Source: an uncultured Dehalococcoidales bacterium
GTDB taxonomy: Bacteria; Chloroflexota; Dehalococcoidia; Dehalococcoidales; BS750m-G39
Direction of reading: 5' to 3'
Length of the DNA: 49,494 nucleotides
Assembly (NCBI GenBank): GCA_964652005.1
Contig: CAZYZL010000001.1
Coordinates: forward strand, 1 to 49,494
The notes beneath the pieces were generated by a model that saw nothing but the letters and a program-made list of their open reading frames with translations, did no database searches and was not told the origin of the DNA. The translations under genes and the position numbers were made by a program. How positions within the stretch are numbered: position 1 is the first letter of the stretch; each line of letters begins with the position of its first letter. Shown piece by piece: positions 27,405 through 49,494 of the stretch.

Positions 27405-27463
27405 GCGGCTCTCCTTTCTGAGGCCAGAGATAATAACTATGACGTTATTTCACACTATTAGCC

Positions 27464-33817: not shown

Positions 33818-33835
33818 TTTTACTAGGGTTGTTGA

Positions 33836-34025: not shown

Positions 34026-34060
34026 TAATCTGTTTAATATAGATTACCCCTTCTTGTTTT
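34021..34060 (+). terminator. Riboswitch expression-platform intrinsic terminator
   Basis: AGGGGTAATCT, a 9-nt loop, AGATTACCCCT, then TCTTGTTTT. The 5' arm overlaps the 3' strand of aptamer-2 P1. Confidence 0.75.
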
Positions 34061-34108
34061 GGGAAGAAGGTAAAATTATTTAGCCATCTCTTGTAAGGAG
34101 ATTAAGTA

Positions 34109-35188
34109 ATGAAATTACTAAAGAAGACACCCCTTAACAAGGTGCATCATGACTTGAAAGCCAGGATGATAGATTTTGCTGGCTGGGAGTTACCTGTCTG
34201 GTTCACTTCTATTTTGGCGGAGCATAGGGCTGTTCGCTCTGGAGCAGGTATGTTTGATGTCTCCGATATGGGCAGAGTTTGGGTAAGCGGCAGGAAAGCG
34301 GGTTCCTTTCTTGATAAGGTATTAACCAAGCCAGCCCAGCAGTTAGAGGTAGGTTCGGCTCAGCTCTGCTTGCTGTGTTTAGAGGATGGAGGTATTCTAG
34401 ATGACTTGTGGGTATATCACGTAGGGACTGACCGGTATTTAATAGTTTGGAATGCAGCCAATATTGAGCAAAAGCTTGACTGGTTATGCCGTTGCTCAGG
34501 CTCAGACCCTGATATCATCATTGAGGACACATCTCCTGATACGGTTATGCTGGCTGTCCAGGGTCCATCTGTTTGCCAACTGAAGAATCTGAAGGGTGTC
34601 TCCCATTTACCTCGCTTTGGTCACACCCAAACGAAGATAGGCGGTCTAAGCGTATTTGTGGCTAGAACGGGATACACCGGAGAGGATGGCTTTGAGATTA
34701 TTAGCCATGCGGCAAATGCCTTACCCTTATGGGAATCGTTTATGGAACAGGGAGTGAAGCCCTGTGGCTTGGGGGCACGTGACAGCCTGCGATTGGAAGC
34801 CGGTATGCTGTTGTATGGGCAGGACATGGATACAGGCACCAATCCTTTTGAGGCTGGACTGGAGTGGTTAGTAGACCTTGGCAAGGGCGAGTTTATCGGT
34901 AAAAGTGCTCTGCTTGCGATTAAGCGCCAAGGTGTTAAGCGCAAGCTCATTGGCTTTCAAGTGAAAGGGCGAGAGATAGCTCGCTCAGCTTACAAAATTT
35001 TCAAATCTGACCAAGAGGTGGGCAGGGTTACTAGTGGTGGATATGCGCCAACTCTAGGTGTTAGTATTGGCCTGGGTTATGTTCCTATTGAGCTAGCCAC
35101 CATCGGCACTGATATTGAGATAATGATTCGCAACAAACCAGCGGCTGCTCAAGTAGTTAATAAGCGATTCTACCAAAGAGGAGCGTAA
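34109..35188 (+). CDS. gcvT: Glycine cleavage system T protein (aminomethyltransferase)
   Basis: TPLNKVHHDLKARMIDFAGWELPVWF, GMFDVSDMG, and RTGYTGEDGFEI. Confidence 0.95.
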   Translation: MKLLKKTPLNKVHHDLKARMIDFAGWELPVWFTSILAEHRAVRSGAGMFDVSDMGRVWVSGRKAGSFLDKVLTKPAQQLEVGSAQLCLLCLEDGGILDDLWVYHVGTDRYLIVWNAANIEQKLDWLCRCSGSDPDIIIEDTSPDTVMLAVQGPSVCQLKNLKGVSHLPRFGHTQTKIGGLSVFVARTGYTGEDGFEIISHAANALPLWESFMEQGVKPCGLGARDSLRLEAGMLLYGQDMDTGTNPFEAGLEWLVDLGKGEFIGKSALLAIKRQGVKRKLIGFQVKGREIARSAYKIFKSDQEVGRVTSGGYAPTLGVSIGLGYVPIELATIGTDIEIMIRNKPAAAQVVNKRFYQRGA

Positions 35189-35189
35189 A

Positions 35190-35591
35190 ATGAACTCAAA
35201 AGACTGTAAGTACACACAGGAACATGAATGGATTCGTCCTGAGCCTGGGAATAAGGGGAGTATAGGGCTTACCGATTATGCCCAATCTCAGTTGGGAGAT
35301 ATAGTTTATCTGGACTTGCCCGCCCCGGGCACTCAAGTGGAACAGTTCAAGAAGATGGGTGAGGTCGAATCAGTGAAAGCAGTTTCAGACATTTTCTCAC
35401 CAGTTAGTGGGCAGGTATTGGAAATCAACCAAACTGTCATCGATGAGCCTGGGCTGGTGAATGAAGACCCTTACGGAGCTGGTTGGCTGGTTAGGTTAGA
35501 ATTGAGCAAGCCTTCAGAGCTTGATGCCTTAATGGATAGCGACAAGTATGATAAATTTGTAGCTGAGTTATCTGAAGAAGAGTCAGAATAG
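35190..35591 (+). CDS. gcvH: Glycine cleavage system H protein
   Basis: YTQEHEWI and the lipoyl-lysine motif GEVESVKAVSDIFSPVSG. Confidence 0.95.
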   Translation: MNSKDCKYTQEHEWIRPEPGNKGSIGLTDYAQSQLGDIVYLDLPAPGTQVEQFKKMGEVESVKAVSDIFSPVSGQVLEINQTVIDEPGLVNEDPYGAGWLVRLELSKPSELDALMDSDKYDKFVAELSEEESE

Positions 35592-35607
35592 ATGGAGGAT
35601 AAGACTA

Positions 35608-36909
35608 ATGCCATCACCTTATTTACCCAATACTGATGCTGACCGCAGGGCTATGTTGCGGGAAATCGGAGTCAGTTCAATTGAGGAGCTATTTCAGGAT
35701 ATACCTGAAAAGTTACGCCATGCCCGGTTCAAGTTGCCGCCTCCTCTCTCTGAGCTAGAACTCAAAAAAGAACTCCATCAACTGGCAAGCCGTAATGCCA
35801 GTTTGGATAATTATGCTTGTTTTCTAGGTGGCGGTAGCTACCGGCACTTTATTCCGAGCACGGTTGAACACGTTACCGGTCGAAGCGAGTTCTATACTGC
35901 TTACACTCCATATCAAGCCGAGGTCAGCCAGGGTACACTACAAACCGTCTACGAATACCAGTCGCTGGTCTGCCAGCTCACCGGGATGGAAGTGAGCAAT
36001 GCTGGAATGTATGATGGCAGCACAGCGGCTGGGGAAGCAGCCATAATGGCATGTATAATAAAGAAAAAGAACAAGGTTGCTGTGTCAACCACGGTAAACC
36101 CGACCTATCGTGAGGTGATAAATACTTATGTTACGGGTCGGAACCTTTCTATAGAGACGGTAGAGTTAAACTCAAGCTTATCTTCGGACTGTGCCTGTTT
36201 AATAGTCCAACAGCCCAATTTCTTTGGCTATCTTGAAGAGATGGAAGCCTATGTTCAGAAAGCCCATGATATTGGGGCCTTATTCATTGCCATAGTTGAC
36301 CCTATTTCGCTAGGGATGTTTAAGCCACCAGAGGATTATAGGGCTGATATTGCTGTTGCTGATGGTCAGGCGTTGGGCAACCCGACAAGCTTTGGGGGAC
36401 CAGGTTTGGGCGCCTTTGCCTGTCGCAAAGAATACTTGCGCCAGATGCCAGGCAGGATTGTGGGCAAGACGGTGGATGTTGAGGGTAAGCCAGGGTATGT
36501 GATGACCTTGGTGACCCGCGAGCAATATATCCGAAGAGAGCGAGCTACATCTAATATCTGCACCAGTGAGGCTTTGATGGCCCTAGCCGCAGCGGTTTAT
36601 CTAGCTACCTTGGGCAAAAGAGGACTGAGACAGGTAGCTGAGCTATGCTATCACAAGGCTCACTATGCTGCCGAAAAAGTAGCTAAGCTCAAGGGATATT
36701 CCCTCGTTTTTCAAAAGCCTTTCTTCAAGGAGTTTGTCATTCGTTGCCCAATAGCACCCTCCCAGATTAACCAAGCCCTTTTCAAGGAAGGAATAATCGG
36801 TGGTTTAGATATAAGCTACATAATAGACAATAGTATGCTGCTCTGTGTTACCGAGATGAACACCAAACAGGAGATAGACAAATTGGTTGAAATTCTAGGA
36901 GCATTTTAG
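35608..36909 (+). CDS. gcvPA: Glycine dehydrogenase (decarboxylating) subunit 1
   Basis: YLPNTDADRRAMLREIG, FLGGGSYRHFIP, and YTPYQAEVSQGTLQ. Confidence 0.93.
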   Translation: MPSPYLPNTDADRRAMLREIGVSSIEELFQDIPEKLRHARFKLPPPLSELELKKELHQLASRNASLDNYACFLGGGSYRHFIPSTVEHVTGRSEFYTAYTPYQAEVSQGTLQTVYEYQSLVCQLTGMEVSNAGMYDGSTAAGEAAIMACIIKKKNKVAVSTTVNPTYREVINTYVTGRNLSIETVELNSSLSSDCACLIVQQPNFFGYLEEMEAYVQKAHDIGALFIAIVDPISLGMFKPPEDYRADIAVADGQALGNPTSFGGPGLGAFACRKEYLRQMPGRIVGKTVDVEGKPGYVMTLVTREQYIRRERATSNICTSEALMALAAAVYLATLGKRGLRQVAELCYHKAHYAAEKVAKLKGYSLVFQKPFFKEFVIRCPIAPSQINQALFKEGIIGGLDISYIIDNSMLLCVTEMNTKQEIDKLVEILGAF

Positions 36910-36921
36910 GGGGAGCGAGAA

Positions 36922-38364
36922 ATGAGTCATTATTATTTACTTCCTAACATTAGCCAGCCGGGCAAGATTGGGTGCAGTCTACCAACTCTAGATGTATCTC
37001 CGGCCAAGTTGCCCCCTAAGGAGCTACTCCGCCGAGAACTAAAGCTACCCGAGGTAAGTGAGGTTGAGCTAATGAGGTATTTCACCAGCTTAAGCAAGCT
37101 CAATTACGGAGTGGATACGGGATTTTACCCACTAGGCAGCTGCACCATGAAATATAATCCAAAATGGCATGAGGATATTGCCAAACTTGCCGGTTTTGCT
37201 TCAATTCACCCCCACCAGCCAGAGGAGTCTGTTCAGGGAGCCCTGCAGCTTATGTTCGAGCTGCAAGAGTATTTAGCTGAGATTACTGGCATGAATGCCA
37301 CCAGCTTGGTTCCTATAGCCGGAGCCCATGGTGAGTTTACCGGCTTGCTAATGGTAAAAGCATACCATCAACACCGAGGGGGTAAAGCTCGGAAGAAGAT
37401 ACTATTAACCGATTCTTCCCATGGAACCAACCCGGCTAGTGCTGTTATGTGCGGATTTGAGATAGGTGTCGTGGCTTCCGATAGTGAAGGTAATGTAGAT
37501 ATGAAGAGTCTGGAATCGGTGATGAATGAGGAGGTGGCTGCTTTAACATTAACCATGCCTACCACTTTAGGTCTATTTGACCCACAAATAGTGGAAATTA
37601 GCCAATTGGTTCATGAAAGGGGGGGACTTCTGGGTGCTGATGGGGCAAACTTGAATGCTTTCTTGGGGCGGGTGAAATTTGGAGAGTTGGGCTATGATTA
37701 TGTCCAGCTAAATCTCCATAAAACCTTCAGTACCCCCCATGGGGGTGGCGGACCAGGCTCAGGTCCGGTCTGTGCTAAGGAAAATTTGACTGATTTTCTG
37801 CCCTCACCTTTGGTAACTAAGAATAATGGGAAGTATAAGTTTGTCTCACCAGCTAAGTCTATAGGGAGGATAGCTAATTTTTACGGAAACTTTGGTGTAA
37901 TGGTTAAGGCTTATGCTTATATCCGTTCTCTGGGCGCCGAAGGGCTAAAGGAGGTCAGCGAGAACGCTGTTCTAAATGCTAACTACCTTAAGGAGAGGCT
38001 AAAACCATATTATTACCTGCCCTATGACCGCACCTGCATGCATGAAGTAGTGTTTTCGGGGAAACGCCAAAAGGTAAAGGGTGTTCATACGTTAGATATC
38101 GCCAAGCGTTTGCTTGATTACGGTCTTCACCCCCCCACCGTCTATTTCCCCTTGATAGTTGACGAAGCCCTCATGACTGAGCCTAATGAGACAGAGAGCA
38201 AACAAACACTGGATGCTTATATTGAGGCTATGAAAGAAATAGCCAGAGAGGCCGAGGAAAACCCTGAAATCTTGCATTCTGCTCCCCATAACACACCGGT
38301 TAGGCGCCTGGACGACGTCAGAGCTGCCAGAAATCCCGACTTACGCTGGGAGATGAGGAGTTAA
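36922..38364 (+). CDS. gcvPB: Glycine dehydrogenase (decarboxylating) subunit 2
   Basis: LGSCTMKYNPK and NLHKTFSTPHGGGGPGSGP (PLP lysine). Confidence 0.93.
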   Translation: MSHYYLLPNISQPGKIGCSLPTLDVSPAKLPPKELLRRELKLPEVSEVELMRYFTSLSKLNYGVDTGFYPLGSCTMKYNPKWHEDIAKLAGFASIHPHQPEESVQGALQLMFELQEYLAEITGMNATSLVPIAGAHGEFTGLLMVKAYHQHRGGKARKKILLTDSSHGTNPASAVMCGFEIGVVASDSEGNVDMKSLESVMNEEVAALTLTMPTTLGLFDPQIVEISQLVHERGGLLGADGANLNAFLGRVKFGELGYDYVQLNLHKTFSTPHGGGGPGSGPVCAKENLTDFLPSPLVTKNNGKYKFVSPAKSIGRIANFYGNFGVMVKAYAYIRSLGAEGLKEVSENAVLNANYLKERLKPYYYLPYDRTCMHEVVFSGKRQKVKGVHTLDIAKRLLDYGLHPPTVYFPLIVDEALMTEPNETESKQTLDAYIEAMKEIAREAEENPEILHSAPHNTPVRRLDDVRAARNPDLRWEMRS

Positions 38365-38368
38365 GGCT

Positions 38369-39751
38369 TTGGATGAAAAGGACATAGTGATAATTGGAGG
38401 CGGTCCTGCTGGCTATGTGGCAGCAATTCATGCTTCTCACCGGGGGGCTAAAGTGGCTGTGGTTGAGAAGGACAAGCTAGGTGGTACTTGCCTTAACCGA
38501 GGCTGTATTCCCACCAAGGCGCTTACCAGAAGCGTGGAGGTGCTCCTTGAAGCAAGAAGGGCAAACGATTTCGGAATAGAGGTTAACAACATCAAGATAA
38601 ATTTTCCCAAGATTATGGCTCGTAAAAGCAATGTCGTTAGCCAATTAGTGTCCGGTGTTGAACAGTTAATGAAAGCAAACAAGATAAGTATCTATAGGGG
38701 TACTGGCTGCATTCTGTCTCCATACCTGGTTAAAGTGAATGATGAAGAGATAGCAACCAGGAAGCTTATTATTGCCACTGGCTCCGAGTCGACTCCACTT
38801 CCTATCCCTGGTAGAGACCTGCCTGGGGTGCTGACCACTGATGATATCCTTGAGTTAACAGAACCCCCGGAGAGCCTTGTGGTCATTGGGGGTAGTTATG
38901 TGGGTGTTGAGTTCGCTAGCATCTTTAATGTGTTGGGGACAAAGGTAACCATTGTTAAAAGACGTCCTCTCCGGCTAGAGCCTATTGATGAAGAGGTTGG
39001 ACGACGTTTCGCCCAGACCTTGCCGAGGCAAGGTATTGAAGTCAAAATTGGAGCTGCGGTTAAGGCTATTAAGAGGAATGGAGCCGTTCTCAGCGTGGTT
39101 TGGGATACTCCACAGGGTGAGCAGGGAGTGGAGGGGCAGATGGTTCTTATGGCTACCGGGCGTGCCCCTTATACTGAGGGCCTGGGCTTATCACAACTCG
39201 GTATAAAGATGGACGGGCGAGCTATCGTGGTGAATGAACACCTTGAGACAAATATCAAAGATGTTTATGCCATCGGGGATGTTGTTGGCAAGAACATGCT
39301 GGCGCATGTTGCCTCCTATGAGGGAGAGGTAGCTGTTGAGAATGCCCTTGGTCATCCCCGTCAAGCCGATTATCACGCTGTCCCTAGTTGTATCTTTGCC
39401 CAACCCGAGATAGCCGGTGTTGGCATCACTGAGAAGGAAGCAAATGATAGCGGGATTCCTTATAAAGTGAGCAAATTCCCCTTCCTCGCCTGCGGCCGTG
39501 CTGTAGCCATGGGCGAGACGACGGGCATGGTTAAGATGATTTGTCATGCCGATAATGATAGGGTTCTAGGAATGCACATTATGGGACCCCATGCCAGCGA
39601 CCTCATCGCCGAGGGCGCGCTTGCCATACAACTAGGAGTAACGGCTGAGGACATTGTCCACACTATCCACGCCCATCCCACTCTACCTGAGGCAGTGCGC
39701 GAAACAGCAATGGGGCAGCTCGACGGTGCCATCCACTTCCTAAGGATGTAG
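38369..39751 (+). CDS. lpdA: Dihydrolipoyl dehydrogenase (L protein)
   Basis: IIGGGPAGYVAA, the redox disulfide GGTCLNRGCIPTK, and a C-terminal HAHPTLPE. The start is TTG. Confidence 0.92.
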   Translation: MDEKDIVIIGGGPAGYVAAIHASHRGAKVAVVEKDKLGGTCLNRGCIPTKALTRSVEVLLEARRANDFGIEVNNIKINFPKIMARKSNVVSQLVSGVEQLMKANKISIYRGTGCILSPYLVKVNDEEIATRKLIIATGSESTPLPIPGRDLPGVLTTDDILELTEPPESLVVIGGSYVGVEFASIFNVLGTKVTIVKRRPLRLEPIDEEVGRRFAQTLPRQGIEVKIGAAVKAIKRNGAVLSVVWDTPQGEQGVEGQMVLMATGRAPYTEGLGLSQLGIKMDGRAIVVNEHLETNIKDVYAIGDVVGKNMLAHVASYEGEVAVENALGHPRQADYHAVPSCIFAQPEIAGVGITEKEANDSGIPYKVSKFPFLACGRAVAMGETTGMVKMICHADNDRVLGMHIMGPHASDLIAEGALAIQLGVTAEDIVHTIHAHPTLPEAVRETAMGQLDGAIHFLRM

Positions 39752-39761
39752 AGCTCCACTG

Positions 39762-40469
39762 ATGAGTATTTCTACCAGCAAGAAAGTGTGTATCGCCCCT
39801 TACTTGGGGATAGTGCCATATGAGCTTAGCTTAAAGCTACAACAAGGACTAATGCAAGCGAGAGCTGAGGGCAAAATTGGTGATGTATTACTGCTCCTCC
39901 AGCACCCACCGGTTTTCACCATAGGGCGGTTTAGGGGTGAAGAGGATATAATTGTTCCTCCAGAGGCACTAGCTCAAGAGGGAATAGCTGTCTTTCATAC
40001 CAATCGGGGGGGCGGCAGCACCTATCATGGTCCAGGACAGCTTGTAGGCTATCCCATCATTAACCTTAAAGAAAATGGTCTTGGTGTGCGTGAATATATC
40101 TGGAAATTAGAAGCTGTTATCATCAAGTTATTGCTGGCTCTTGGTATCCAGGGTCACCGGCTGGCAGAGTACCCCGGCGTCTGGGTGGGTGAAAAGAAAG
40201 TTTGTTCCATAGGTATACATGTTAGCCACTACATTACTACACACGGCTTTGCTTTGAATGTAACTAACGACCTGCGGTATTTTGAATATATAAGACCTTG
40301 TGGCTTGGCAAGTGGAGTGATAACCTCAGTTTCAGAATTATTGGGACATCGGGTAGGGGTGGAAACCGTCATAGAAAAATTACTTCGTTCCTTCTCGGAG
40401 ACATTTGGCTTAAGCTGCGAGCCGGGGGATGATAAATGGTTGGCTATACTAGACGCCCTGAGTGGCTGA
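39762..40469 (+). CDS. lipB: Octanoyltransferase (lipoyl(octanoyl) transferase)
   Basis: LLLLQHPPVFTIGR and TNRGGGSTYHGPGQLVGYP. Confidence 0.9.
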   Translation: MSISTSKKVCIAPYLGIVPYELSLKLQQGLMQARAEGKIGDVLLLLQHPPVFTIGRFRGEEDIIVPPEALAQEGIAVFHTNRGGGSTYHGPGQLVGYPIINLKENGLGVREYIWKLEAVIIKLLLALGIQGHRLAEYPGVWVGEKKVCSIGIHVSHYITTHGFALNVTNDLRYFEYIRPCGLASGVITSVSELLGHRVGVETVIEKLLRSFSETFGLSCEPGDDKWLAILDALSG

Positions 40470-41344
40470 AGCTAAGTCCTCTCGAGCCTGCCATACTGAA
40501 CAAAATGAGAAGGCTCACCCGTGACCTGAAGCTGCATACCGTTTGCCAAAGTGCCCGTTGTCCCAACCAGCCAAAATGCTTTGCTGAAGGTACTGCTACC
40601 TTCATGATACTGGGTGACATTTGCACTCGCAATTGCACCTTCTGTGCAGTAAAAAAGGGAAAGCCCCAAGTCCCCGACCCCCAGGAGCCAGAGCATATTG
40701 TGGAAGCAGTCAACAAATTGGAGCTCCGCTATGTGGTTATTACCTCTGTAACTAGGGACGACCTTCCCGATGGTGGTTCCTCCCACTTTGCCCAAACCAT
40801 CAGAGCCATCCATAAGTATGACCCCAATATCAGGGTCGAAGTCCTTATCCCTGATTTCAAGGGTTCACTATCTGCGTTGCAGACAGTGATAGACGCCTTC
40901 CCGGCTGTTCTGAACCATAACATAGAGACGGTACCCCGGCTTTACCCTGAGGTTCGCCCTCAGGCGAAATATCAGCGGTCCCTCGAGCTTTTAAAGCAAG
41001 CCAAGCTCTTCAGTGGTGGACTTTTAACCAAATCAGGGCTCATGTTGGGATTAGGTGAAGCTCGGGAGGAGGTCATTGAAGTAATGGCTGATCTTAGGCA
41101 GGCTGGCTGTGGGATTCTAACGATAGGTCAGTATTTACCGCCTTCGCTAAAGCACCACCAGCTGGTCAGGTACATCCCCCCTGAAGAGTTTGAACAATAT
41201 CAAAATAGGGGAAAGGAAATGGGGTTTGTTGCTGTTATTTCTGGTCCGCTAGTGCGTAGCTCGTTTCATGCTGCTGACGTATCTCTCAGGAGCCTGGGAA
41301 ATGGAGTGGATGTCAAAAAAGTGGGTGGTGTAACATTGGGATGA
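40436..41344 (+). CDS. lipA: Lipoyl synthase (radical SAM)
   Basis: RPEWLK, CPNQPKCF, and CTRNCTFCAV (CxxxCxxC). The gene overlaps the lipB 3' end by 34 nt if the tracked ATG is used. Confidence 0.9.
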   Translation: MVGYTRRPEWLKLSPLEPAILNKMRRLTRDLKLHTVCQSARCPNQPKCFAEGTATFMILGDICTRNCTFCAVKKGKPQVPDPQEPEHIVEAVNKLELRYVVITSVTRDDLPDGGSSHFAQTIRAIHKYDPNIRVEVLIPDFKGSLSALQTVIDAFPAVLNHNIETVPRLYPEVRPQAKYQRSLELLKQAKLFSGGLLTKSGLMLGLGEAREEVIEVMADLRQAGCGILTIGQYLPPSLKHHQLVRYIPPEEFEQYQNRGKEMGFVAVISGPLVRSSFHAADVSLRSLGNGVDVKKVGGVTLG

Positions 41345-41413: not shown

Positions 41414-42970
41414 CTAAACCAGTTCCCTAATAACATCTATAATTGTTCCATCCCTATACTCTTGGACCGCTATGATTTTATCCTTAAACTCCGGCCTTCT
41501 AGGCACTCCACAATATTTATAGGCCATATTTTTTAGTTCTTCAATTTCAAGGATTCGCAGTTTAGCCCCTTTCAAATTCTCTAATAAATCTTCTCTTTTG
41601 GGGTTAACTGCAATGCCTCTTTCGGTAACTAAAGCATCAACGGTTTCTCCTGGCGTGGTTACAGTCAATACTTCATCCACAACAATTGGAATCCTATCTC
41701 TCATAATCGGTGCTACTACTATAGATAGTTTGCTTCCAGCAGCGGAGTCGCTGTGACCTCCTGAACCGCCTATGATAGTCCCATCTGATGCAGTGGTTAC
41801 ATTCACATTAAAATTTACATCTATCTCTGTAGCACCAAGTACGGAAACGGTTAACATATCAGTTGCACAACCTTTTGTGTGTGGATTTGCATACATTGAA
41901 GCTCCTATCTCCACATGATTTGGGTTATTTTTCAACGATTCAACACTTTTTAAATCAAAATCTTGGACATCTAACAAAACTTTTAACAGACCCTTGTCTA
42001 ATAAATCAATAAAATAACTAGTTATCCCTCCTAAGCCAAAACTGCCCGTTAATTTTTTACATACCATTATTTCCCCGAGATACTGTGCGGTTGCTAATGA
42101 AATCCCGCCAGCACCAGTTTGGAAAGAAAAACCAGTCTGCAACAATCCGGAAGCCTCAATAACTTTGGCAGCGCGATACGCAATTTCGGTGCCTACAAGG
42201 CCTGGCACACTTTTTGTAGTTCCCGATACAATGCCAGTTGCATCTCCGATTTTGTCTACTTCTACAACGTAATCAACATGAGTTTGATCAATGCTAATAT
42301 ATGAGAGTGGATAGCTAACTAGATTATCGGTTATTGCTACCACATAGTCTGCATATTCTGCATCAGGAAAGCTATATCCTAAGGAGCCACACGCTGATCG
42401 GCCATCGACACCGTTGATATTTCCGTAGATATCCGCCGTTGGGGAAGCAATAAAGGCTACATCAATATGTGTATCTCCAGACTCTATCCTTCTCGCTCGT
42501 CCTCCATGCGTTAATAATTTTATTGGCTCATTCAACCTAATGGTTCCTTCCTTGAGACCCTGGCATAACCTTTTTCCTAGCCCACTAGAAATGTAATCCG
42601 CCTCAATACTTGTAATCACTCCGTTCTTAATATGTTGAAGTAGCAGTTCATGAATATCAAACAATGCTGAATGCATCAGTTTTAATTCTTTTATCCCAAG
42701 TTTACTTATTTCATCAACAACCATATTTGTAACATAATCACCATTTCGAAGATGGTGGTGGAATGATATAGTCATCCCGTCTTTTAACTCAACCTTAAGT
42801 ATAGCCTCTTTGATGCTGCTTAGGACTTTCTCTCGCCCAAGTTTAACGCGGTATGAAGGATGAGTTTTACATCCGCTCCTTTCAATATGTTTTAAAGCAC
42901 CCTTAAATGGGGGCACCTTCTTGTAGCCTTCAATGGCATCGGGGATTTCTCTACCAACCGAATTAATCAT
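41414..42970 (-). CDS. citF: Citrate lyase alpha subunit / citrate CoA-transferase homologue
   Basis: Recognised by recalled similarity to E. coli CitF: DGMTISFHHHLRNGD, CGSLGYS, QTGAGGISLA, NPNHVEI and SGGHSDSAAGSKLSIVVAP. Confidence 0.85.
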   Translation of the reverse strand: MINSVGREIPDAIEGYKKVPPFKGALKHIERSGCKTHPSYRVKLGREKVLSSIKEAILKVELKDGMTISFHHHLRNGDYVTNMVVDEISKLGIKELKLMHSALFDIHELLLQHIKNGVITSIEADYISSGLGKRLCQGLKEGTIRLNEPIKLLTHGGRARRIESGDTHIDVAFIASPTADIYGNINGVDGRSACGSLGYSFPDAEYADYVVAITDNLVSYPLSYISIDQTHVDYVVEVDKIGDATGIVSGTTKSVPGLVGTEIAYRAAKVIEASGLLQTGFSFQTGAGGISLATAQYLGEIMVCKKLTGSFGLGGITSYFIDLLDKGLLKVLLDVQDFDLKSVESLKNNPNHVEIGASMYANPHTKGCATDMLTVSVLGATEIDVNFNVNVTTASDGTIIGGSGGHSDSAAGSKLSIVVAPIMRDRIPIVVDEVLTVTTPGETVDALVTERGIAVNPKREDLLENLKGAKLRILEIEELKNMAYKYCGVPRRPEFKDKIIAVQEYRDGTIIDVIRELV

Positions 42971-42971
42971 T

Positions 42972-43844
42972 TTACTCTTCCTCCCCCATCCCCAGTCTGG
43001 CTTTTTTCAGAATTAGTTTTGCCCTGGTGACCACCGGTTTATCTATCATCCGGCCATTCTCCAAAACAACTCCTTTTCCCTCTTTTTTGCCCTCCGTGAA
43101 AGCCTTAACTACTCTTAGTGAATATTCTATCTCCTCTTGAGACGGACTGAATACTTCATTAATCACATCAATTTGCGACGGATGTATTGCAGCTTTTCCA
43201 GTAAATCCTAGCTGTTTAGCAACAGCGGCGTCCTTTCTCAGTCCTGCGAGGTTTTTGATATCTGTGAATGGGGTATCTATGACCTCGACTCCTGCTATAT
43301 GAGCTGCGATAGTCAATTTTGAACGTGAATACCATAATTCGCTACCTTCAGGTGTTCGAGCAATCCCCATATCTGCAGTGAAATCTTCAGCCCCCCAAAA
43401 AACTGCTATTATCCTCTCTGATGACTTTAATATTTGATTGATATACTCAACTCCAAAAGCGGTTTCAACAAGGGGAGCAATCGGTACTTGATAATTCAAT
43501 TTATATTCACTTTCAATTCTCTCCAGCTTCTCATTGACTATTGACATATTTGATAGATCTACTTTAGGAATGACTAATGGGTAATCGCCCAATGGTACTA
43601 TCTCCTTTATATCCTCATCAAAATAAGCTGTGGAAGGATTATTTACTCTTATTAAGATATTCTTCTCCCTAATAAAATCAAGGCTTTTGAAAGCCTCTCT
43701 CAATAAAATTCTTGCAGAATCCTTCTCTTCTAGTGGAATAGTATCTTCCAAATCAAAAACAATTGAATCTGAATGAAGAACCACGGCACTATTTATCATA
43801 GATGGTATATTTGCCGGCATAAATATCGCTGATCTGCCTATCAT
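42972..43844 (-). CDS. citE: Citrate lyase beta subunit / citryl-CoA lyase (HpcH/HpaI-CitE family)
   Basis: RSAIFMPANIPSMI...DSIVFDLEDT... and GFTGKAAIHPSQI. It is translationally coupled to citD and citF. Confidence 0.8.
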   Translation of the reverse strand: MIGRSAIFMPANIPSMINSAVVLHSDSIVFDLEDTIPLEEKDSARILLREAFKSLDFIREKNILIRVNNPSTAYFDEDIKEIVPLGDYPLVIPKVDLSNMSIVNEKLERIESEYKLNYQVPIAPLVETAFGVEYINQILKSSERIIAVFWGAEDFTADMGIARTPEGSELWYSRSKLTIAAHIAGVEVIDTPFTDIKNLAGLRKDAAVAKQLGFTGKAAIHPSQIDVINEVFSPSQEEIEYSLRVVKAFTEGKKEGKGVVLENGRMIDKPVVTRAKLILKKARLGMGEEE

Positions 43845-44149
43845 TTGCCTCCCCTTGAAGTTCTAAGAATTGCAGTTTCCAATCTTGCATTCAATACATA
43901 ATCCAGTGCTCCCCGATCATTAATCTCAATGTATATATCTGATACCCCTAATTCTTGTAGCTTCTTCCTTACTACCTTTGATATTTCATCTTTGTATAAT
44001 GATTCTACTCTGCTTTGCAATGTTGTACGCACGCCTTCACCCTTATGCAGTGGTTTGACTCGTATAAATACATCTCCTTCATTGGTAGTTCCGGCTGTTG
44101 CCTCTATTTCGCCGGCTGAATTTATGAATTTTACGTCACCGGTATTCAT
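43841..44149 (-). CDS. citD: Citrate lyase gamma subunit (acyl carrier protein)-like
   Basis: ATAGTTNEGDVFIRVKPL and NDRGALDYVLNARLETAIL align by eye to CitD AGTLESGDVMIRIAPL and DDKGALDCILRARLEALL. I set the start at MNTGDV (ATG at 44149), which has a G-rich SD. Confidence 0.7.
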   Translation of the reverse strand: MNTGDVKFINSAGEIEATAGTTNEGDVFIRVKPLHKGEGVRTTLQSRVESLYKDEISKVVRKKLQELGVSDIYIEINDRGALDYVLNARLETAILRTSRGGK

Positions 44150-44300
44150 CTTTCCCCCAATCAAAACCCAGGGTTCAAGGACGAGGAGCACCTCAGTGTC
44201 AGTAGCAGCTTAGTCAGCTCTTTAGATACTCTTTTCTAGGTGATGCTCTTTGGCAAGTCAATAACCACTATCTTTGAACCACCCGGTTGATTAGGTTGTA

Positions 44301-44507
44301 TCACATCGTGCTCATAGTAGTCAACACCTCCTTTCTTCGGTGTGGAGACAGCCGCTCGCGGTAACTCATCCCTTCAATCACAATCTGGTAGCTGGCGTTG
44401 GTCAAGCTGCCCAGGGCAAGGAGGAACAATTGACTTTGGTCAAGGCCGAGGTGTAAAATCAGCCCTGAGGTGAACAAAAGTAGCCGAAAGGGGGTGATAG
44501 CTTTCAA
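44301..44507 (-). pseudogene. Probable IS21-family IstB C-terminal relic
   Basis: LLLFTSGL...LGSLTNASYQIVIEGMSYRER resembles the IstB C-terminus (..IITSNL...LDRLTHH.HI.E..GESYR.K). No Walker motifs and no istA are present. Confidence 0.35.
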
Positions 44508-44708
44508 GGGATAACGACTAAGGCGCCGGAGATAATTGATGGTCGGTGATTAGCCTTCGGCAGAGAAGGTTTTTAGACAGCCTGAGTAGTCTGCATTTTA
44601 ACTGGCAGTGGCTTGAAGGACGTAGCAGCCCTTAAAAACCACTACCTGCCAGAGAAAGAGCCTGAAAGATAAGGCTATCTAAAAATAAATGAAACAGGGG
44701 AGGTGAAT

Positions 44709-46121
44709 ATGGCAAGAGAAAAACCTTTTATCCACCCCTATATCCCGAATTCAGTCCCCGAGGTAACCGAGGAGATGCTTAAAGAGGTGGGGGTGACAGA
44801 CATAGAAACTCTCTATGAAGAAATCCCAGAAAAACTAAGGCTTAGACGAAAACTGAACTTGCCAGAGCCTCTTTTATCCGAGTACGAGCTTAAGAAATAC
44901 GTGAAGAGCATCCTGTTAAAAAACAAGACCTGTGAGGAAAACCTTAACTTTCTCGGTGGTGGTTGCTGGCAACACTATGTACCGGCGGTCTGTGACGAGA
45001 TTAACCAGCGCTCAGAATTTCTGACAGCTTATACAGGTTCACCTTATGCCAACCTGGGAAAATTTCAGGCATGGTTCGAGTTTCAGAGCCAGATGGGTGA
45101 ACTGGTGGGTATGGAGGTGGTAAGTGTTCCTACTTATAGCTGGGGAGCTGCTGCCGGTAACGCAATTCGTATGGCTTCAAGAATAACGGGCAGGAATGAG
45201 GTATTAATACCCAGAACAATTGACCAGGCAAGGCTGTCAACAATAAAGAATTTCTGCCAGCAGCAAGATACGGCAGGTCATATAGATATTAAGCAAGTTG
45301 GATATAACCCTGAGACAGGCCTGCTGAATATCACCGAATTAGAGAGCAAAATATCATCAAAAACAGCCGCTGTTTATATTGAAAACCCCTCATTTCTCGG
45401 ATTTATTGAGCCTCAAGGCGCTAAAATCTCTGAGATGGCACATGCCAGGGGGGCACTAAGTATCGTAGGGGTTGACCCAATATCCTTAGGCGTCCTGGCT
45501 CCACCAGCCGAGTACGGAGCCGATATAGTAGTTGGTACTGCGCAATCTCTGGGAATACATATGAACTGCGGTGGCGGTTCTATCGGGTTCATCGCTACCA
45601 GAGATGAAGAAAAATATGTCGCCGAACACCCCTCACTTCTGATAAGCATCACCGACACCGTAGAAGAGGGGGAATACGGGTTCTACTTGTGTAAGTCAGA
45701 AAGAACTTCGTATGACTTAAGAGACAAAGGCAAAGATTGGGTCGGAACGGCTGTAGGCCTGTGGGCTATCACCGCTGCGGTTTATATGGCGCTGATGGGT
45801 CCCAAAGGTTTCAAGGAAATAGGGCAGACTATCATACAGAAATCTCATTATGCCATTAAACTGCTATCTGAGGTAAAAGGCGTTAAAGCCCTGTTTCAAC
45901 AGAATGTTTTTAAGGAATTTGTGGTCAACTTTGACGCCATCGGCAAAAGCGTCAGTGATATAAATAAAGCCCTTCTCAAATACAATATTTTCGGCGGGTA
46001 TGATATTTCAAAGGAATTTCCAGAACTGGGCAACAGTGCCCTATACTGTGTAACCGAAATCCACAGCCAGGAAGATATCCAAAAGCTTGCCAATGCCTTA
46101 AGGGAGGTTCTAGCCGGATGA
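44709..46121 (+). CDS. Divergent GcvPA-like protein (P-protein subunit-1 paralogue)
   Basis: HPYIPNSVPEVTEEMLKEVGV, FLGGGCWQHYVP and RSEFLTAYTGSPYANLGKFQ align to GcvPA, but the YTPYQ.E.SQG motif is changed. The start is set at the ATG at 44709, with GGGGAGG 5 nt upstream. Confidence 0.8.
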   Translation: MAREKPFIHPYIPNSVPEVTEEMLKEVGVTDIETLYEEIPEKLRLRRKLNLPEPLLSEYELKKYVKSILLKNKTCEENLNFLGGGCWQHYVPAVCDEINQRSEFLTAYTGSPYANLGKFQAWFEFQSQMGELVGMEVVSVPTYSWGAAAGNAIRMASRITGRNEVLIPRTIDQARLSTIKNFCQQQDTAGHIDIKQVGYNPETGLLNITELESKISSKTAAVYIENPSFLGFIEPQGAKISEMAHARGALSIVGVDPISLGVLAPPAEYGADIVVGTAQSLGIHMNCGGGSIGFIATRDEEKYVAEHPSLLISITDTVEEGEYGFYLCKSERTSYDLRDKGKDWVGTAVGLWAITAAVYMALMGPKGFKEIGQTIIQKSHYAIKLLSEVKGVKALFQQNVFKEFVVNFDAIGKSVSDINKALLKYNIFGGYDISKEFPELGNSALYCVTEIHSQEDIQKLANALREVLAG

Positions 46122-47674
46122 AAAAGAATGTAAAGTTGCGAAAGTTTCATGCTCCCGTTTGGAGCGAGCCGGTTATTATGGAAATGGGCAATAAAGGTGA
46201 AAGAGGCATCATAATGCCTGAAGTCGAAGAGGAGATACAGGCGGCCATAGGTGATGCCGAGTCCTATATCCCGGAAGAAATGAGGAGGAAAGAAGAGCCG
46301 GCGCTTCCGGAGATATCACAACCACAGCTTTTAAGGCATTATGAGCACCTTTCCGAGCAGACGGTCGGCATGGAGGAAAATATTGACATCAGCCAGGGCA
46401 CCTGTACCATGAAGTACAGCCCCAAGGTAAATGAAATGCTGGCCAGAATGCCCCAGATGACAGAAATACACCCTTATCAGGATGAGGATACCATCCAGGG
46501 CTGTCTGGAGATAATGTACCAGCTTGACCTTTTCCTGAGAGAAATCTCCGGGCTGGATAAATTTACCTTTCAGCCTTGCGGCGGCTCTCAGGCTGCCTAC
46601 ACCAATGTCTGCATCATAGCAGCCTACCATGCTTCCAGAGGGGAGCTTGCCCAGCGAAATGAAATGATCACCACAATCTTCTCACACCCCTGTAACGCCG
46701 CTACGGCAAACACGGCCGGCTTTAAGGTTATTACCCTGATGCCGGAAGAAAACGGTCGCCCCAGCCTTGAAGCCCTGAAAGCTGTTTGTTCAGAGCATAC
46801 CGCCGGTCTAATGATAACCAACCCGGAGGACACAGGCATATATAACCCGCAAATAAGAGAGTTTGTTGATACTGTTCACACAGCGGGGGGACTCTGCTGC
46901 TACGACCAAGCTAATGCCAACGGTATACTGGGCATAACCAGAGCCAAGGAAGCTGGCTTTGATGGCTGTTTCTTTAACCTGCACAAGACATTCTCCTCTC
47001 CTCACGGGTCTATGGGGCCGGGTTGTGGAGCTTATGGGTGTACCGAAGAGCTGGCAAAATTCCTGCCTTACCCTGTGGTGACTTTTGATGGCACAAAATA
47101 TCATCTGGAATATGGCCGCCCGGACAGCATCGGCAAGGCCAGTGAATTTATAGGCAACATTCCATCTGTTCTTAAGGCTTACGGCTGGATAATGAGCATG
47201 GGGGCAGAAGGTTTGCTCAAGGTTGCTCAGATATCCACCCTGAATAACCATTACCTTGACAAGATGCTTATGCAGATACCGGGTATAGTAAAATACTACG
47301 ACACCGGCAAGCGCAGAATTGAGCAGGTTAGATACAGCTGGGAGAAAATGGAAAAGGAAACCGGTTGCGGCACTGAAGATGTGCGGAGAAGAATGGTAGA
47401 TTATGGCCTTCAGCAATATTTTACCAGCCATCACCCGTGGGTAGTTCCAGAACCGTTCACCCCTGAGCCCTGTGAAACATACTCCAAAGAAGACTGTGAA
47501 TACTGGGCTGCAGTAATGGCCCAGATATCTAAAGAAGCCTATACAGACCGGAAAATTCTCAAAAAGGCTCCCCATAACTCTACCATACACAAGCTAAATT
47601 ATGAGACATTTGATGACCCGCAGAAATGGGCAATGACCTGGCGGGCATTCCTCAGAAAAAAAGGAGGGAAATAA
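46118..47674 (+). CDS. Divergent GcvPB-like protein (P-protein subunit-2 paralogue), PLP lysine retained
   Basis: GTCTMKYSPK and NLHKTFSSPHGSMGPGCG. The protein is 518 aa. The ATGA overlaps the upstream stop. Confidence 0.8.
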   Translation: MKKNVKLRKFHAPVWSEPVIMEMGNKGERGIIMPEVEEEIQAAIGDAESYIPEEMRRKEEPALPEISQPQLLRHYEHLSEQTVGMEENIDISQGTCTMKYSPKVNEMLARMPQMTEIHPYQDEDTIQGCLEIMYQLDLFLREISGLDKFTFQPCGGSQAAYTNVCIIAAYHASRGELAQRNEMITTIFSHPCNAATANTAGFKVITLMPEENGRPSLEALKAVCSEHTAGLMITNPEDTGIYNPQIREFVDTVHTAGGLCCYDQANANGILGITRAKEAGFDGCFFNLHKTFSSPHGSMGPGCGAYGCTEELAKFLPYPVVTFDGTKYHLEYGRPDSIGKASEFIGNIPSVLKAYGWIMSMGAEGLLKVAQISTLNNHYLDKMLMQIPGIVKYYDTGKRRIEQVRYSWEKMEKETGCGTEDVRRRMVDYGLQQYFTSHHPWVVPEPFTPEPCETYSKEDCEYWAAVMAQISKEAYTDRKILKKAPHNSTIHKLNYETFDDPQKWAMTWRAFLRKKGGK

Positions 47675-47675
47675 G

Positions 47676-48473
47676 ATGGGAAAGCTGGAAGGTAAGGTAG
47701 CCATCATAACAGGGGCTGCCAGAGGTAATGGTGAAGGAGCAGCCAGGGTTATGGCAAAAGAAGGCGCCACCACGGTATTAACCGACATTCTGGACCAGGT
47801 TCACGAAACTGCCAAAAGCATCTGTGAAGACGGCTATAAGGCTGTTTCTTTCAAGATGGATGTTACCAAGCCAGCCGAGATTAAGGATGTAGTTAAGAAG
47901 GTGTTAGCACAGCTTGGCAAAATAGATATCCTGGTTAACAATGCCGGCATAGTGCGTGGTTTCCGCCTCGTTGATATGCCGGACGAAGAAAGAGACAGAC
48001 AGTTTGACGTTAATATCAAAGGAGCCTTTAACTGTGCCAAGGCAGTGCTGCCAGGCATGATAGAGCAGAGATACGGCAAAATAATAAATGTATCTTCGGT
48101 TACAGGGCCTATGGTTGCTGATATTGGACACTGCGCTTATGCAGCAACCAAAGCCGCCCTCTGGGGTTTTACCCGGGCACTGGCTCTTGAGGTTGCTGAA
48201 TATGGTATAAATGTAAACGCTATCTGCCCTGGTTACATTTTGACCCCATGGATAAAAATTAGCGCCAGCAAAAGAAACCCAGCCAACCCTGATGCCGTTC
48301 TTAACCAGTGGGCAAAACATATACCGATGGGTAGGCTGGGAACAATAGAAGAGTTTGGTCAACTGGTAGCATTCCTGGCATCTGACGAATCAAAATACAT
48401 AACCGGCACGCCTGTTATTATTGACGGGGGAAACACCATACCGGAGTCAGGTATAGGCTATCAGGAAGCATAG
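47676..48473 (+). CDS. Short-chain dehydrogenase/reductase (classical SDR)
   Basis: TGAARGNG, NNAG, and the S...YAATK catalytic triad context. Confidence 0.85.
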   Translation: MGKLEGKVAIITGAARGNGEGAARVMAKEGATTVLTDILDQVHETAKSICEDGYKAVSFKMDVTKPAEIKDVVKKVLAQLGKIDILVNNAGIVRGFRLVDMPDEERDRQFDVNIKGAFNCAKAVLPGMIEQRYGKIINVSSVTGPMVADIGHCAYAATKAALWGFTRALALEVAEYGINVNAICPGYILTPWIKISASKRNPANPDAVLNQWAKHIPMGRLGTIEEFGQLVAFLASDESKYITGTPVIIDGGNTIPESGIGYQEA

Positions 48474-48512
48474 GTTACCTGTAAAGGCAGAGAACGGAAA
48501 GGAGACATTAAA

Positions 48513-49289
48513 ATGGGTAGATTAGACGGCAAGGTTGCCCTGATAACCGGCGCTGCTATGGGCATAGGAGAGGCCAGTGCCAGGCTCTTTGCCAAAGAAG
48601 GGGCTAAGGTTGCAGTTGCCGACATCAATGAAGCTAAAGGTAAAGAGGTAGTTGAAGATATCAGGAAGGGTGGTGGGGAAGCCATCTTTGTCAAGCTGGA
48701 TGTCAGCAAGGAGAGTGATTGGACAGCAGGAGTTAACAAGGTTGTTAAAACATATGGCAAGTTAAATGTACTGGTTAATAATGCCGGAATCATAGTGTGT
48801 GTGCCGTTTGAAGAGACCACCCTGGAGCAGTGGAACCGAATAATGGAGGTTAACGCAACCGGTGTCTTCTTGGGGGTTAAGTATGGCATTAAAGCCATGA
48901 AAGATAACGGCGAGCTGTGTTCAATCATAAACAGGTCATCGACTGCTGCCAAGGTAGCAGGTAAAAACATAGCGGCATACGGCGCCTCCAAGGGTGCTGT
49001 CTCAACTCTAACCAAACAGGCAGCAATTGCCTGCTGCGAAGCAGGGTACAAGATTAGAGTTAACTCCGTGCTACCCTGCGAGGTTCGCACACCGATGGCA
49101 GAGCAAGAAGCTAGGGAATTCGGAATGTCAGTTAAGGATTACCTGGAACTGAGAAGAAAGGGGCTCCCCATCGGTCGTATCGGTGAACCGATTGATATTG
49201 CTTACATGGACCTGTATCTGGCATCTGATGAATCCAGCTGGGTTACCGGCTCCGAATTTGTCATAGATGGGGGTGTGCTGGCGCGCTAG
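48513..49289 (+). CDS. Short-chain dehydrogenase/reductase (classical SDR)
   Basis: TGAAMGIG, NNAG, and YGASK. Confidence 0.85.
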   Translation: MGRLDGKVALITGAAMGIGEASARLFAKEGAKVAVADINEAKGKEVVEDIRKGGGEAIFVKLDVSKESDWTAGVNKVVKTYGKLNVLVNNAGIIVCVPFEETTLEQWNRIMEVNATGVFLGVKYGIKAMKDNGELCSIINRSSTAAKVAGKNIAAYGASKGAVSTLTKQAAIACCEAGYKIRVNSVLPCEVRTPMAEQEAREFGMSVKDYLELRRKGLPIGRIGEPIDIAYMDLYLASDESSWVTGSEFVIDGGVLAR

Positions 49290-49344
49290 CAATATTTACC
49301 GCGAACTCTGGCAGTAAGCTCAGCAGTTTTATATGAGGAACCTG

Positions 49345-49385
49345 CCTACACCCCTCTGTTATAAGAAGGGGGTAGGTGGGTTTTG
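49345..49385 (+). terminator. Possible intrinsic terminator after the second SDR gene
   Basis: CCTACACCCCT ... AGGGGGTAGG forms an imperfect stem with one bulge, followed by TGGGTTTT. Confidence 0.4.
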
Positions 49386-49431
49386 ACATTCTTTGATAAA
49401 AGGCAAGACTAAGCAAGCAGAGAGAGCTAAT

Positions 49432-49494
49432 TTGGGAAAGAAAAAGCTTGGGTTCATAGTAAACCCTGTCGCCGGAATGGGGGGGCGGGTAGGG
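49432..49494 (+). CDS. 5' end of an ATP-NAD kinase-like / AcoX-like protein (truncated by the window end)
   Basis: From a TTG start the translation is GKKKLGFIVNPVAGMGGRVG, which resembles the N-terminal (I/F)IVNP.AGMGGRVGLKG signature of AcoX-type proteins. Only 21 codons are visible. Confidence 0.4.
   Translation, partial: MGKKKLGFIVNPVAGMGGRVG

Follow-up and report, generated by a model that had tools for sequence, protein, structure and literature searches.

Organization of the operon

The DNA analysed here is a stretch of 49,494 nucleotides (nt) from an uncultured Dehalococcoidales bacterium (contig CAZYZL010000001.1), which as a whole is called the window. Its last part, positions 44709-49494, is occupied by an operon of five co-directional genes, delimited from open reading frame (ORF) calls and from reading of the sequence: PA2 and PB2, whose products resemble the alpha (GcvPA) and beta (GcvPB) subunits of the glycine cleavage P-protein; SDR1 and SDR2, for two short-chain dehydrogenases/reductases (SDRs); and a gene for a kinase-fold protein (Table 1). 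The gene layout, the ATGA overlap and the two short gaps are as described in a first-pass annotation. The last gene is cut by the end of the window, beyond which that annotation had suggested looking for the rest of the cluster. The metagenome contig L039, 98.7% identical to the window, runs past this end; in it the kinase-fold gene is complete, with about 375 amino acids (aa), and the operon ends there.

SDR1 is a classical, UcpA-like SDR (Pfam adh_short_C2, 220 bits; NCBIfam UcpA, 345 bits, slightly under the 356 cut-off) with the motifs TGAARGNG, NNAG(88) and YAATK(155), and its best solved relatives are a generic alcohol dehydrogenase and FabG. SDR2, 37% identical to SDR1, is a second classical SDR that resembles (R)-specific alcohol dehydrogenases and carries the motifs TGAAMGIG, NNAG(89) and YGASK(156). 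Homologues of both adjoin the PA2-PB2 pair elsewhere at identities consistent with orthology, 50-56% in other phyla for SDR1, and 43-61% in Desulfobacterales, Bathyarchaeia and Baldrarchaeota for SDR2.

Table 1. Features of the PA2-PB2 operon and of other loci in the window
Feature	Position	Strand	Remarks
PA2	44709-46121	+	470 aa, ATG start; in-frame GTG at 44703; GGAGG ribosome-binding site 5'
PB2	46118-47674	+	518 aa; start overlaps PA2 stop as ATGA
SDR1	47676-48473	+	265 aa; 1-nt gap after PB2
SDR2	48513-49289	+	258 aa; 39-nt gap after SDR1; GGAG ribosome-binding site
Hairpin with T-run	49345-49384	+	bulged 10-bp stem followed by TGGGTTTT; between SDR2 and kinase-fold gene; read from sequence
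Kinase-fold gene, start	49432-49494	+	TTG at 49432; opens MGKKKLGFIVNPVAGMGGRVG; cut by window end, first 21 residues only
Promoter-like site	44430-44459	+	TTGACT-18-TAAAAT; consensus scan, consensus match only; in 517-nt intergenic region 44192-44708
Canonical glycine cleavage locus	33833-41344	+	gcvT-gcvH-gcvPA-gcvPB-lpd-lplA-like-radical SAM genes at 34109-41344
Glycine riboswitch of canonical locus	33833-33936	+	Rfam, single aptamer match, 58.5 bits
Citrate lyase operon	41414-44191	-	citF (518 aa)-citE (290 aa)-citD (acyl carrier protein subunit); convergent with canonical gcv, divergent from PA2
Amino-acid permease	21669-23000	-	distant cluster
Class III aminotransferase, GABA-transaminase-like	23067-24500	-	distant cluster
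Alanine dehydrogenase	24557-25669	-	distant cluster
AMP-binding coenzyme A (CoA) ligase	25701-27404	-	distant cluster
Aldehyde:ferredoxin oxidoreductase	27464-29326	-	distant cluster

Conserved catalytic residues and replaced loops in PA2 and PB2

Each of PA2 and PB2 is 37% identical to its canonical counterpart (PA1 and PB1) encoded 6 kb upstream in the same window, and the closest structures are 1WYT_A for PA2 and 1WYT_B for PB2. PA2 reaches 209 bits with Pfam GDC-P and 499 bits with NCBIfam GcvPA (cut-off 364; canonical copy 610), and PB2 542 bits with NCBIfam GcvPB (cut-off 441; canonical copy 717). Both are longer than the canonical copies (470 against 433 aa, or +37, for PA2; 518 against 480 aa, or +38, for PB2), which bears out the extra length of about 38 aa reported in the first-pass annotation. 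The longer proteins of the paralogue class contain zero additional recognisable domains, and T-P fusions were seen in canonical sequences only.

The catalytic equipment of the beta subunit is preserved. Three residues are kept in 25 PB2 sequences: the lysine that binds pyridoxal 5'-phosphate (PLP), in NLHKTFSSPHG (NLHK(290)TF), the N1-binding aspartate, in YDQANANG, and the ring-stacking histidine, in SHP; GTCTMKYSPK, pointed out earlier together with the lysine motif, is present as well. The consensus of the 25 members departs from the canonical one at four places: SAHGTNPA becomes fSHPxNAA, the glycine-rich loop PHGGGGPGSGP becomes PHGxxGPxxGA, T(V/I)YFPLIV becomes SHHPWvvPEP, and a conserved C-terminal extension is added. 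PA2 has no PLP lysine, as in the canonical alpha subunit, and keeps the glutamine that stands in for it.

The alteration of the alpha subunit that had been noticed at first pass is a true replacement upon proper alignment, and it affects two loops. In loop 1 the canonical YTPYQxExSQG gives way to YTGSPYANLGKFQ, one residue shorter; the canonical segment, YTPYQ(P/A)E(I/V)SQGxLQ, is near-invariant, while its counterpart is replaced throughout the paralogue clade and, reading aY.G-..Y.D.G(K/R).Q, varies between subclades. In loop 2 the canonical KATSNICT, which reads R(E)KATSNICTN in an alignment of 107 sequences, is replaced by RDKGKDWVGT, with the family consensus R..(A/G)K(D/E)(W/F).GT. The clade-specific residues of both subunits are themselves conserved. 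In fold-type-I PLP enzymes, segments of the partner subunit at such positions shape the specificity of the neighbouring active site. In human GLDC, the tyrosines of the YTPYQ motif, Y161 and Y164, have been classed as active-site residues, and R373 and K376 of the RRDKATSNICT loop are located at the docking-predicted interface with the H-protein (PMC7259800).

A separate and widespread P-protein clade

One representative per 50%-identity cluster was searched across 1.84 billion proteins, and the 107 full-length matches that were aligned split into two loop classes, canonical and paralogue, with zero intermediates. Mean identity is 45% within the paralogue class and 32% between the classes. A neighbour-joining tree built from 112 alpha sequences puts those with altered loops, 24 in number, in one clade that has no canonical member within, so that the divergence claimed at first pass stands when it is put to phylogeny: these alpha subunits fall outside the ordinary GcvP clades. 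Across Chloroflexota, Desulfobacterales, Firmicutes, Bathyarchaeia and plasmids, identity within the family is 52-92%, against 37% to the canonical copies.

The pair is no orphan, as it had been called; it belongs to a very large family. A protein search with PA2 gave at least 8000 scored candidates (E < 1e-30), the best 120 of which are 65-100% identical to it and come from Chloroflexota, Syntrophales, Deltaproteobacteria and Bathyarchaeia, and the paralogue family comprises more than a dozen 50%-identity clusters. Searches of genomes and plasmids added, as further hosts, Desulfobacterales, a gammaproteobacterial metagenome-assembled genome, Baldrarchaeota, [Clostridium] ultunense, Bacillus chungangensis, Vagococcus elongatus, Thermincola, Phosphitispora and Formimonas, together with Rhodococcus, Paracoccus, Sphingomonas, Gemmobacter and a haloarchaeon, the last five with plasmid-borne copies. 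PA2 and PB2 are representatives of a separate, widespread and mobile P-protein clade of bacteria, archaea and plasmids. The Prokaryotic Genome Annotation Pipeline (PGAP) names its members GcvPA and GcvPB, that is, automatic annotation mis-names the family. Zero studies on the function of the family were found in the literature searched, whose coverage was incomplete.

A conserved gene neighbourhood

The surroundings of the pair were compared in 114 loci from genomes and metagenomes, with ORFs called mechanically; the counts that follow come from loci that are not phylogenetically independent. Wherever the sequence extends far enough, PB2 follows PA2, and a kinase-fold gene is present in 60 of the 69 loci that continue for 1.4 kb or more past PB2. 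Among the 48 loci that extend 2.5 kb or more on both sides, a kinase-fold gene accompanies the pair in 42 and an SDR gene in 32, whereas GcvH occurs in 4 and GcvT in 1, so that the association with gcvT and gcvH expected of a canonical P-protein was not found. Less frequent companions in the same set are class III aminotransferases and M20 deacylases (5/48 each), and Zn-dependent alcohol dehydrogenases, aldehyde:ferredoxin oxidoreductases and aldo-keto reductases (4/48 each). A Pfam tally of 128 neighbouring proteins left the SDRs as the sole strongly recurrent family; amino-acid permeases, amine oxidase and CoA ligase also recur.

Individual loci illustrate how these genes are combined. The closest relative (L032, 92% identity in PA2) has PA2-PB2-SDR1-SDR2-kinase followed by an aldehyde:ferredoxin oxidoreductase gene, with an unrelated upstream region. 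On a plasmid of Rhodococcus qingshengii, a LysR gene precedes SDR-APC permease-SDR-kinase-PA2-PB2-CoA ligase-ArgE/DapE (M20) deacylase; on one of Gemmobacter, a TetR gene precedes kinase-PA2-PB2-APC permease-SDR-acyl-CoA synthetase-primary-amine oxidase; and on one of Sphingomonas, a LysR gene precedes alcohol dehydrogenases-kinase-PA2-PB2. Bacillus sp. F19 has a sigma-54 regulator and then SDR-PA2-PB2-SDR-M20-aminotransferase. A class III aminotransferase gene comes directly after PA2-PB2-kinase in L010 and L041, a Liv-type ABC transporter is inserted between PB2 and the kinase gene in L037, BrnQ is encoded directly upstream in L017, and APC permeases lie near the module in several loci. In or beside the module are also found DUF436 (TIGR01440, function unknown) in five Firmicutes loci (L024, L027, L130, L131 and L132) and the PLP synthase PdxS in three (L024, L130 and L132), and a calcineurin-like phosphoesterase is encoded in or near it in Formimonas and Vagococcus.

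Regulators of the ANTAR type adjoin the module in two hosts. In Vagococcus (L026, 7805-9798) a response regulator of this type stands directly upstream with a histidine kinase (PdtaS-type GAF domain), and the two were read as EutV/EutW-like. In Paracoccus aminophilus (L121, 7206-9105) the ANTAR regulator is divergent and is accompanied by a protein with a substrate-binding domain, which was read as AmiC-like. Their presence is a hint that the inducer may be a small amine or amide.

We take the operon of the window as one instance of a conserved module, probably catabolic, that has spread horizontally, and the linkage of the GcvP-like pair to SDR and AcoX-like genes, first seen in this genome, recurs across phyla, archaea and plasmids. 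With the altered-loop alphas outside the ordinary GcvP clades, this linkage shared by many genomes and no demonstrated redundant glycine decarboxylase activity in the literature searched, the three findings that could have overturned the first-pass reading are lacking, and that reading of the pair as a candidate uncharacterised PLP decarboxylase system is supported.

Compared with the canonical GcvPA/GcvPB P-protein, PA2 and PB2 share the fold, the two-subunit architecture, the PLP lysine, aspartate and histidine of beta and the glutamine for lysine of alpha; they pass the NCBIfam cut-offs, and in some of their relatives a glycine riboswitch precedes the pair or gcvH and lpd are close by. They differ in their 37% identity, in their separate clade, in the two replaced alpha loops and, in PB2, in the altered glycine-rich loop and 'PTxxFP' segment and the conserved C-terminal extension. 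Their context differs too, since they are seldom found by gcvT or gcvH, almost always with a kinase-fold gene and often with SDRs.

The kinase-fold partner

The N-terminus visible in the window matches the proteins P0271 and P0272, and the gene is of about 375 aa in L032 as in L039. Read from these relatives, the protein contains the Pfam domains NAD_kinase (PF01513) and NAD_kinase_C (PF20143) with a weak match to DAGK_cat (PF00781), and its GGDGT motif is invariant in 30 sequences. It is named predicted NAD kinase by JGI, has zero NCBIfam model matches and has zero sequence relatives in the PDB. An AlphaFold model (pLDDT, the predicted local distance difference test, 82.5) gave in Foldseek weak PDB neighbours, the best of which were DgkB diacylglycerol kinases with template modelling (TM) scores of 0.2-0.3; with zero convincing neighbours, a structural identification through the PDB was given up. 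The likeness of the partner to diacylglycerol kinases is no less than that to NAD kinases.

The label AcoX/NAD-kinase-like given at first pass holds in part. With the AcoX/COG3199 family, predicted polyphosphate/ATP-dependent NAD kinases, the protein shares the N- and C-terminal NAD_kinase domains, the GGDGT motif, the length of about 375 aa and the JGI name; it differs in that acetoin dehydrogenase genes are not seen nearby, in having no NCBIfam match and no solved relative, and in its equal likeness to diacylglycerol kinases. AcoX is defined by its linkage to the acetoin dehydrogenase genes acoABC, and none of the loci examined contains acetoin (aco) genes. The likeness to AcoX was judged from domains, motif, length and database name. 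No reported function was found for the COG3199/AcoX-like family.

Two homologues outside the module are of interest. On plasmid EAL2_808p of Peptoclostridium acidaminophilum (L126, 7992-10068), a kinase-fold gene overlaps that of a 328-aa PLP enzyme of the HisC/CobD family, whose substrates are phospho-esters; it adds a second type of association between kinase-fold proteins and PLP enzymes. In Pseudoalteromonas sp. NC201 (L128, 6421-8113), a 45%-identical homologue overlaps the end of the EF-P hydroxylase gene epmC, with no P-protein paralogue nearby, and for this reason the kinase-fold gene was rejected as a marker of the module.

Glycine riboswitches in relatives

The region upstream of PA2 (44150-44760) matched zero Rfam families, permissive mode included, and the absence of a riboswitch stated in the first-pass annotation is correct for PA2 of the window; it does not extend to its relatives, in two distant lineages of which glycine riboswitches precede PA2. 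They were found in 3 of about 127 loci (L024, L130 and L088), and a covariance model built here and run over 127 loci and the window gave zero further cases.

In Thermincola ferriacetica (L024, 8745-9586) and Phosphitispora fastidiosa (L130, 8091-8599), the interval from lpd to PA2 contains two tandem glycine riboswitches, one after the other and in the same orientation as PA2. Each riboswitch of L130 has its own terminator overlapping the P1 stem, L024 has the corresponding hairpin after its first riboswitch, and in both about 400 nt separate the last terminator from the PA2 start. Such serial, double-gated riboswitches are an unusual arrangement. Downstream, both loci continue with PA2-PB2-kinase-permease-MFS-DUF436-PdxS-x-GcvH2. 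In the other lineage (L088, 1-8400), a PA2 that shares only 54% identity with its L024 counterpart comes after a glycine riboswitch and is followed by a PB2 of only 166 aa, truncated by either a module deletion or an assembly artefact, and by a kinase-fold gene; a second glycine riboswitch precedes trxB-trxA-grdE-grdA-grdB with a selenocysteine insertion sequence (SECIS) element. These riboswitches are the only direct clue to function; their support, which is regulatory, is for glycine and for no other input, and it comes only from SDR-less Firmicutes versions. Since relatives carry glycine riboswitches, glycine stays a candidate substrate.

Two T-box elements were set aside. That of L027, which lies 5' of the gene string, controls argG and argH and is therefore uninformative on the module; that of L024 precedes the next downstream gene, serA by synteny with L130.

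A proposed function for the module

It is plausible, if somewhat short of probable, that the P-protein of the module has taken on a new function. We propose, tentatively, that PA2 and PB2 form a PLP decarboxylase that releases an amine or amino alcohol and does not feed lipoyl-GcvH, the product being passed on to aldehyde and then to acid, alcohol or acyl-CoA, with the kinase-fold protein acting on a hydroxyl or as an ATP-dependent partner. In the model, PB2 and PA2 would keep the PLP-dependent alpha-decarboxylation of a small amino acid. The decarboxylated intermediate would no longer be passed to lipoyl-GcvH, because the replaced alpha loops correspond to those that in GLDC hold the active-site tyrosines and the predicted H-protein contact; it would probably be protonated and freed as a primary amine or amino alcohol. 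An omega-transaminase, or an amine oxidase in aerobes, would form the aldehyde, and the SDRs would interconvert hydroxyl and carbonyl on the released product or its aldehyde. The kinase-fold protein would probably phosphorylate a hydroxyl of substrate or product, or serve as an ATP-dependent partner, and an aldehyde:ferredoxin oxidoreductase, an SDR or alcohol dehydrogenase, and a CoA ligase would complete the route. Possible substrates of the SDR-bearing version of the window are hydroxylated and acidic amino acids.

The window itself contains a candidate for the later steps. A cluster at 21669-29326, 15-23 kb upstream of the PA2 operon, looks from its gene families like an amine-to-aldehyde-to-acid-to-acyl-CoA set (Table 1). 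A link to the PA2 operon is suggestive, because its class III aminotransferase is 59% and 52% identical to those that follow the module in L041 and L010, respectively, and because the same functions flank the module elsewhere.

Known systems offer parallels of context. By analogy, the proposed pathway would resemble that of group II PLP decarboxylases, such as glutamate decarboxylase with GadC and gamma-aminobutyrate (GABA) transaminase, in combining a decarboxylase, an APC permease, an omega-transaminase or amine oxidase, and aldehyde enzymes; those decarboxylases belong to another sequence family, so that the likeness is one of gene context only, and amine release by PA2/PB2 is proposed. The L-threonine kinase and CobD of cobamide synthesis would be a second analogue, in which a kinase is paired with a PLP decarboxylase, as may be echoed by the overlapping HisC/CobD-family gene of P. 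acidaminophilum; they differ in that both components come from other protein families and in that cobamide genes are not linked to the module.

Several points weigh against the proposed amine-releasing decarboxylase. By sequence, PA2 and PB2 are members of GcvPA/GcvPB (Pfam GDC-P and GcvP2_C) and score above the NCBIfam equivalog cut-offs, if far under the canonical copies. The riboswitches of the relatives and the gcvH2 that ends the Thermincola and Phosphitispora operons fit glycine and H-protein chemistry better, and genes of the lipoyl system lie near the module in the window, in L024/L130 and in L033. The role given to the alpha loops is inferred from a homology-model paper and from general knowledge of fold-type-I enzymes. 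The kinase activity of the partner is putative, and its 45%-identical relative in Pseudoalteromonas is solitary. The accessory genes vary among loci, and therefore a single pathway is not readable from them. The link to the distant amine cluster, finally, may be a coincidence.

Alternative explanations

The most serious alternative, which we consider rather unlikely, is that PA2 and PB2 are a genuine second glycine decarboxylase that transfers the aminomethyl group to lipoyl-GcvH in trans, an isoenzyme for instance for high glycine loads, with the SDRs and the kinase-fold protein as passengers or modulators. The intact PLP residues, the scores above the equivalog cut-offs and the gcvPA/gcvPB names given by PGAP agree with it, and so do the two tandem ON-type glycine riboswitches before PA2 in Thermincola and Phosphitispora, with gcvH2 and pdxS in the same gene string, and the riboswitch before PA2 in the 54%-identical L088 lineage, beside a riboswitch-controlled glycine reductase operon. 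In the window, canonical gcvT, gcvH and lpd are near. The canonical locus that contains them could supply GcvH, T and L in trans; its glycine riboswitch is listed in Table 1, and its radical SAM gene may encode lipoyl synthase. This set is 6 kb off, beyond the citrate lyase operon, in agreement with the earlier remark that no T or H protein adjoins the pair. Nearness to the canonical gcv locus was dropped as a conserved trait: it recurs in Thermincola, Phosphitispora and L033 and is broken in L032. Against the isoenzyme stand the clade-wide replacement of two alpha loops that are near-invariant in canonical proteins and the fact that at least three genomes also encode, within a few kb, an intact canonical P-protein. 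The gene counts (GcvH 4/48 and GcvT 1/48, against 42/48 for the kinase-fold gene and 32/48 for SDRs) point in the same direction, as do the permease, CoA ligase, amine oxidase and deacylase of the catabolic operons, which have no role in glycine cleavage, and the riboswitches are confined to 3 of about 127 loci.

A reading that retains glycine without the H-protein appears quite unlikely to us. The clade would be an H-protein-independent glycine decarboxylase that converts glycine to methylamine, or joins the aminomethyl carbanion to a new electrophile, with permease, kinase-fold protein and SDRs attached, in anaerobes and in plasmid catabolic operons. If true, it would be an unrecognised route of glycine catabolism and a possible source of methylated amines and amino alcohols in anoxic sediments, hidden under the names GcvPA and GcvPB.

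In a third alternative the kinase would act first. Phosphorylation of a hydroxy-amino acid, for example serine or threonine, by the kinase-fold protein would give an O-phospho form for PA2/PB2 to decarboxylate, and a class III phospho-lyase would cleave the resulting phospho-amino-alcohol to an aldehyde for the SDRs, an aldehyde:ferredoxin oxidoreductase or a CoA ligase. CobD decarboxylates threonine phosphate. The tight pairing of the kinase-fold gene with a PLP enzyme, and the like pairing with a HisC/CobD-family enzyme in P. acidaminophilum, would be accounted for, and the new conserved basic residues of the alpha loops (G-K/R-x-Q; K-D/E-W/F) could, judging from their sequence, bind an anionic group. 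Class III aminotransferase-family genes adjoin the module, a calcineurin-like phosphoesterase occurs in or near it in Formimonas and Vagococcus, and an EutV/EutW-like ANTAR two-component system stands directly 5' in Vagococcus. The class III enzymes linked to the module, however, score nearest to GABA and acetylornithine transaminases and not to phospho-lyases; spending ATP on catabolism is unusual; the glycine riboswitches are left unexplained; and the substrates of the kinase are putative. The chance that this order of steps is right seems to us slim.

No better placed is a condensation, in which glycine would be decarboxylated and the carbanion would attack a new electrophile (an acyl-thioester or carbonyl) to give an aminomethyl ketone or amino alcohol, which the SDRs would reduce or oxidise and the kinase-fold protein phosphorylate. 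It would reconcile the glycine riboswitches, the SDR and kinase-fold partners, and the remodelled loops at the predicted entrance of H-protein and lipoamide, and the combination of SDR, kinase, class III enzyme and permease has a parallel in the aminoacetone/aminopropanol pathway of mycobacterial microcompartments. Such a reaction has no known precedent in the GcvP family, the riboswitch-controlled versions are without SDRs, no conserved gene is a candidate for supplying the electrophile, and the scheme is purely inferential; we regard it as very unlikely.

That PA2 and PB2 are a decaying or non-functional gcvPA/gcvPB duplicate, set beside unrelated genes by chance, is hardly credible: the PB2 truncated to 166 aa in L088 would agree with decay, but the reading frames of the window are intact and translationally coupled, thousands of homologues, at 52-92% identity across domains, keep catalytic residues and gene order, and the conservation of the clade-specific residues contradicts it.

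Implications for annotation

Metabolic reconstructions probably over-count the capacity for glycine cleavage or for the reductive glycine route in Chloroflexota, Bathyarchaeia, sulfate reducers, syntrophs and others, because pipelines name these genes glycine cleavage P-protein subunits. Once the reaction is worked out, two uncharacterised families would together gain a function, the repurposing of a lipoyl-dependent decarboxylase would be understood and the glycine riboswitch control of some copies would be explained. The question is directly testable because the module is present in cultured hosts, namely Rhodococcus jostii RHA1, Paracoccus aminophilus, Phosphitispora fastidiosa and [Clostridium] ultunense.

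Further features of the operon region

The promoter-like site upstream of PA2 would give a leader of about 250 nt. Two antisense ORFs, 46808-47590 in PB2 and 48461-49090 in SDR2, were taken as spurious because of the strong family matches of the sense frames. The weak hairpin that the first-pass annotation had placed before the last gene was found as the bulged stem with a T-run of Table 1; it is not among the predictions of a terminator scan and could be a weak terminator or attenuator. Five of five metagenome contigs with an identical PB2 (L001-L005) end no more than about 200 nt after SDR2, near this hairpin, and L039 alone reads through; the shared contig ends (49290-49494) could reflect a recurrent assembly break or strain variation.

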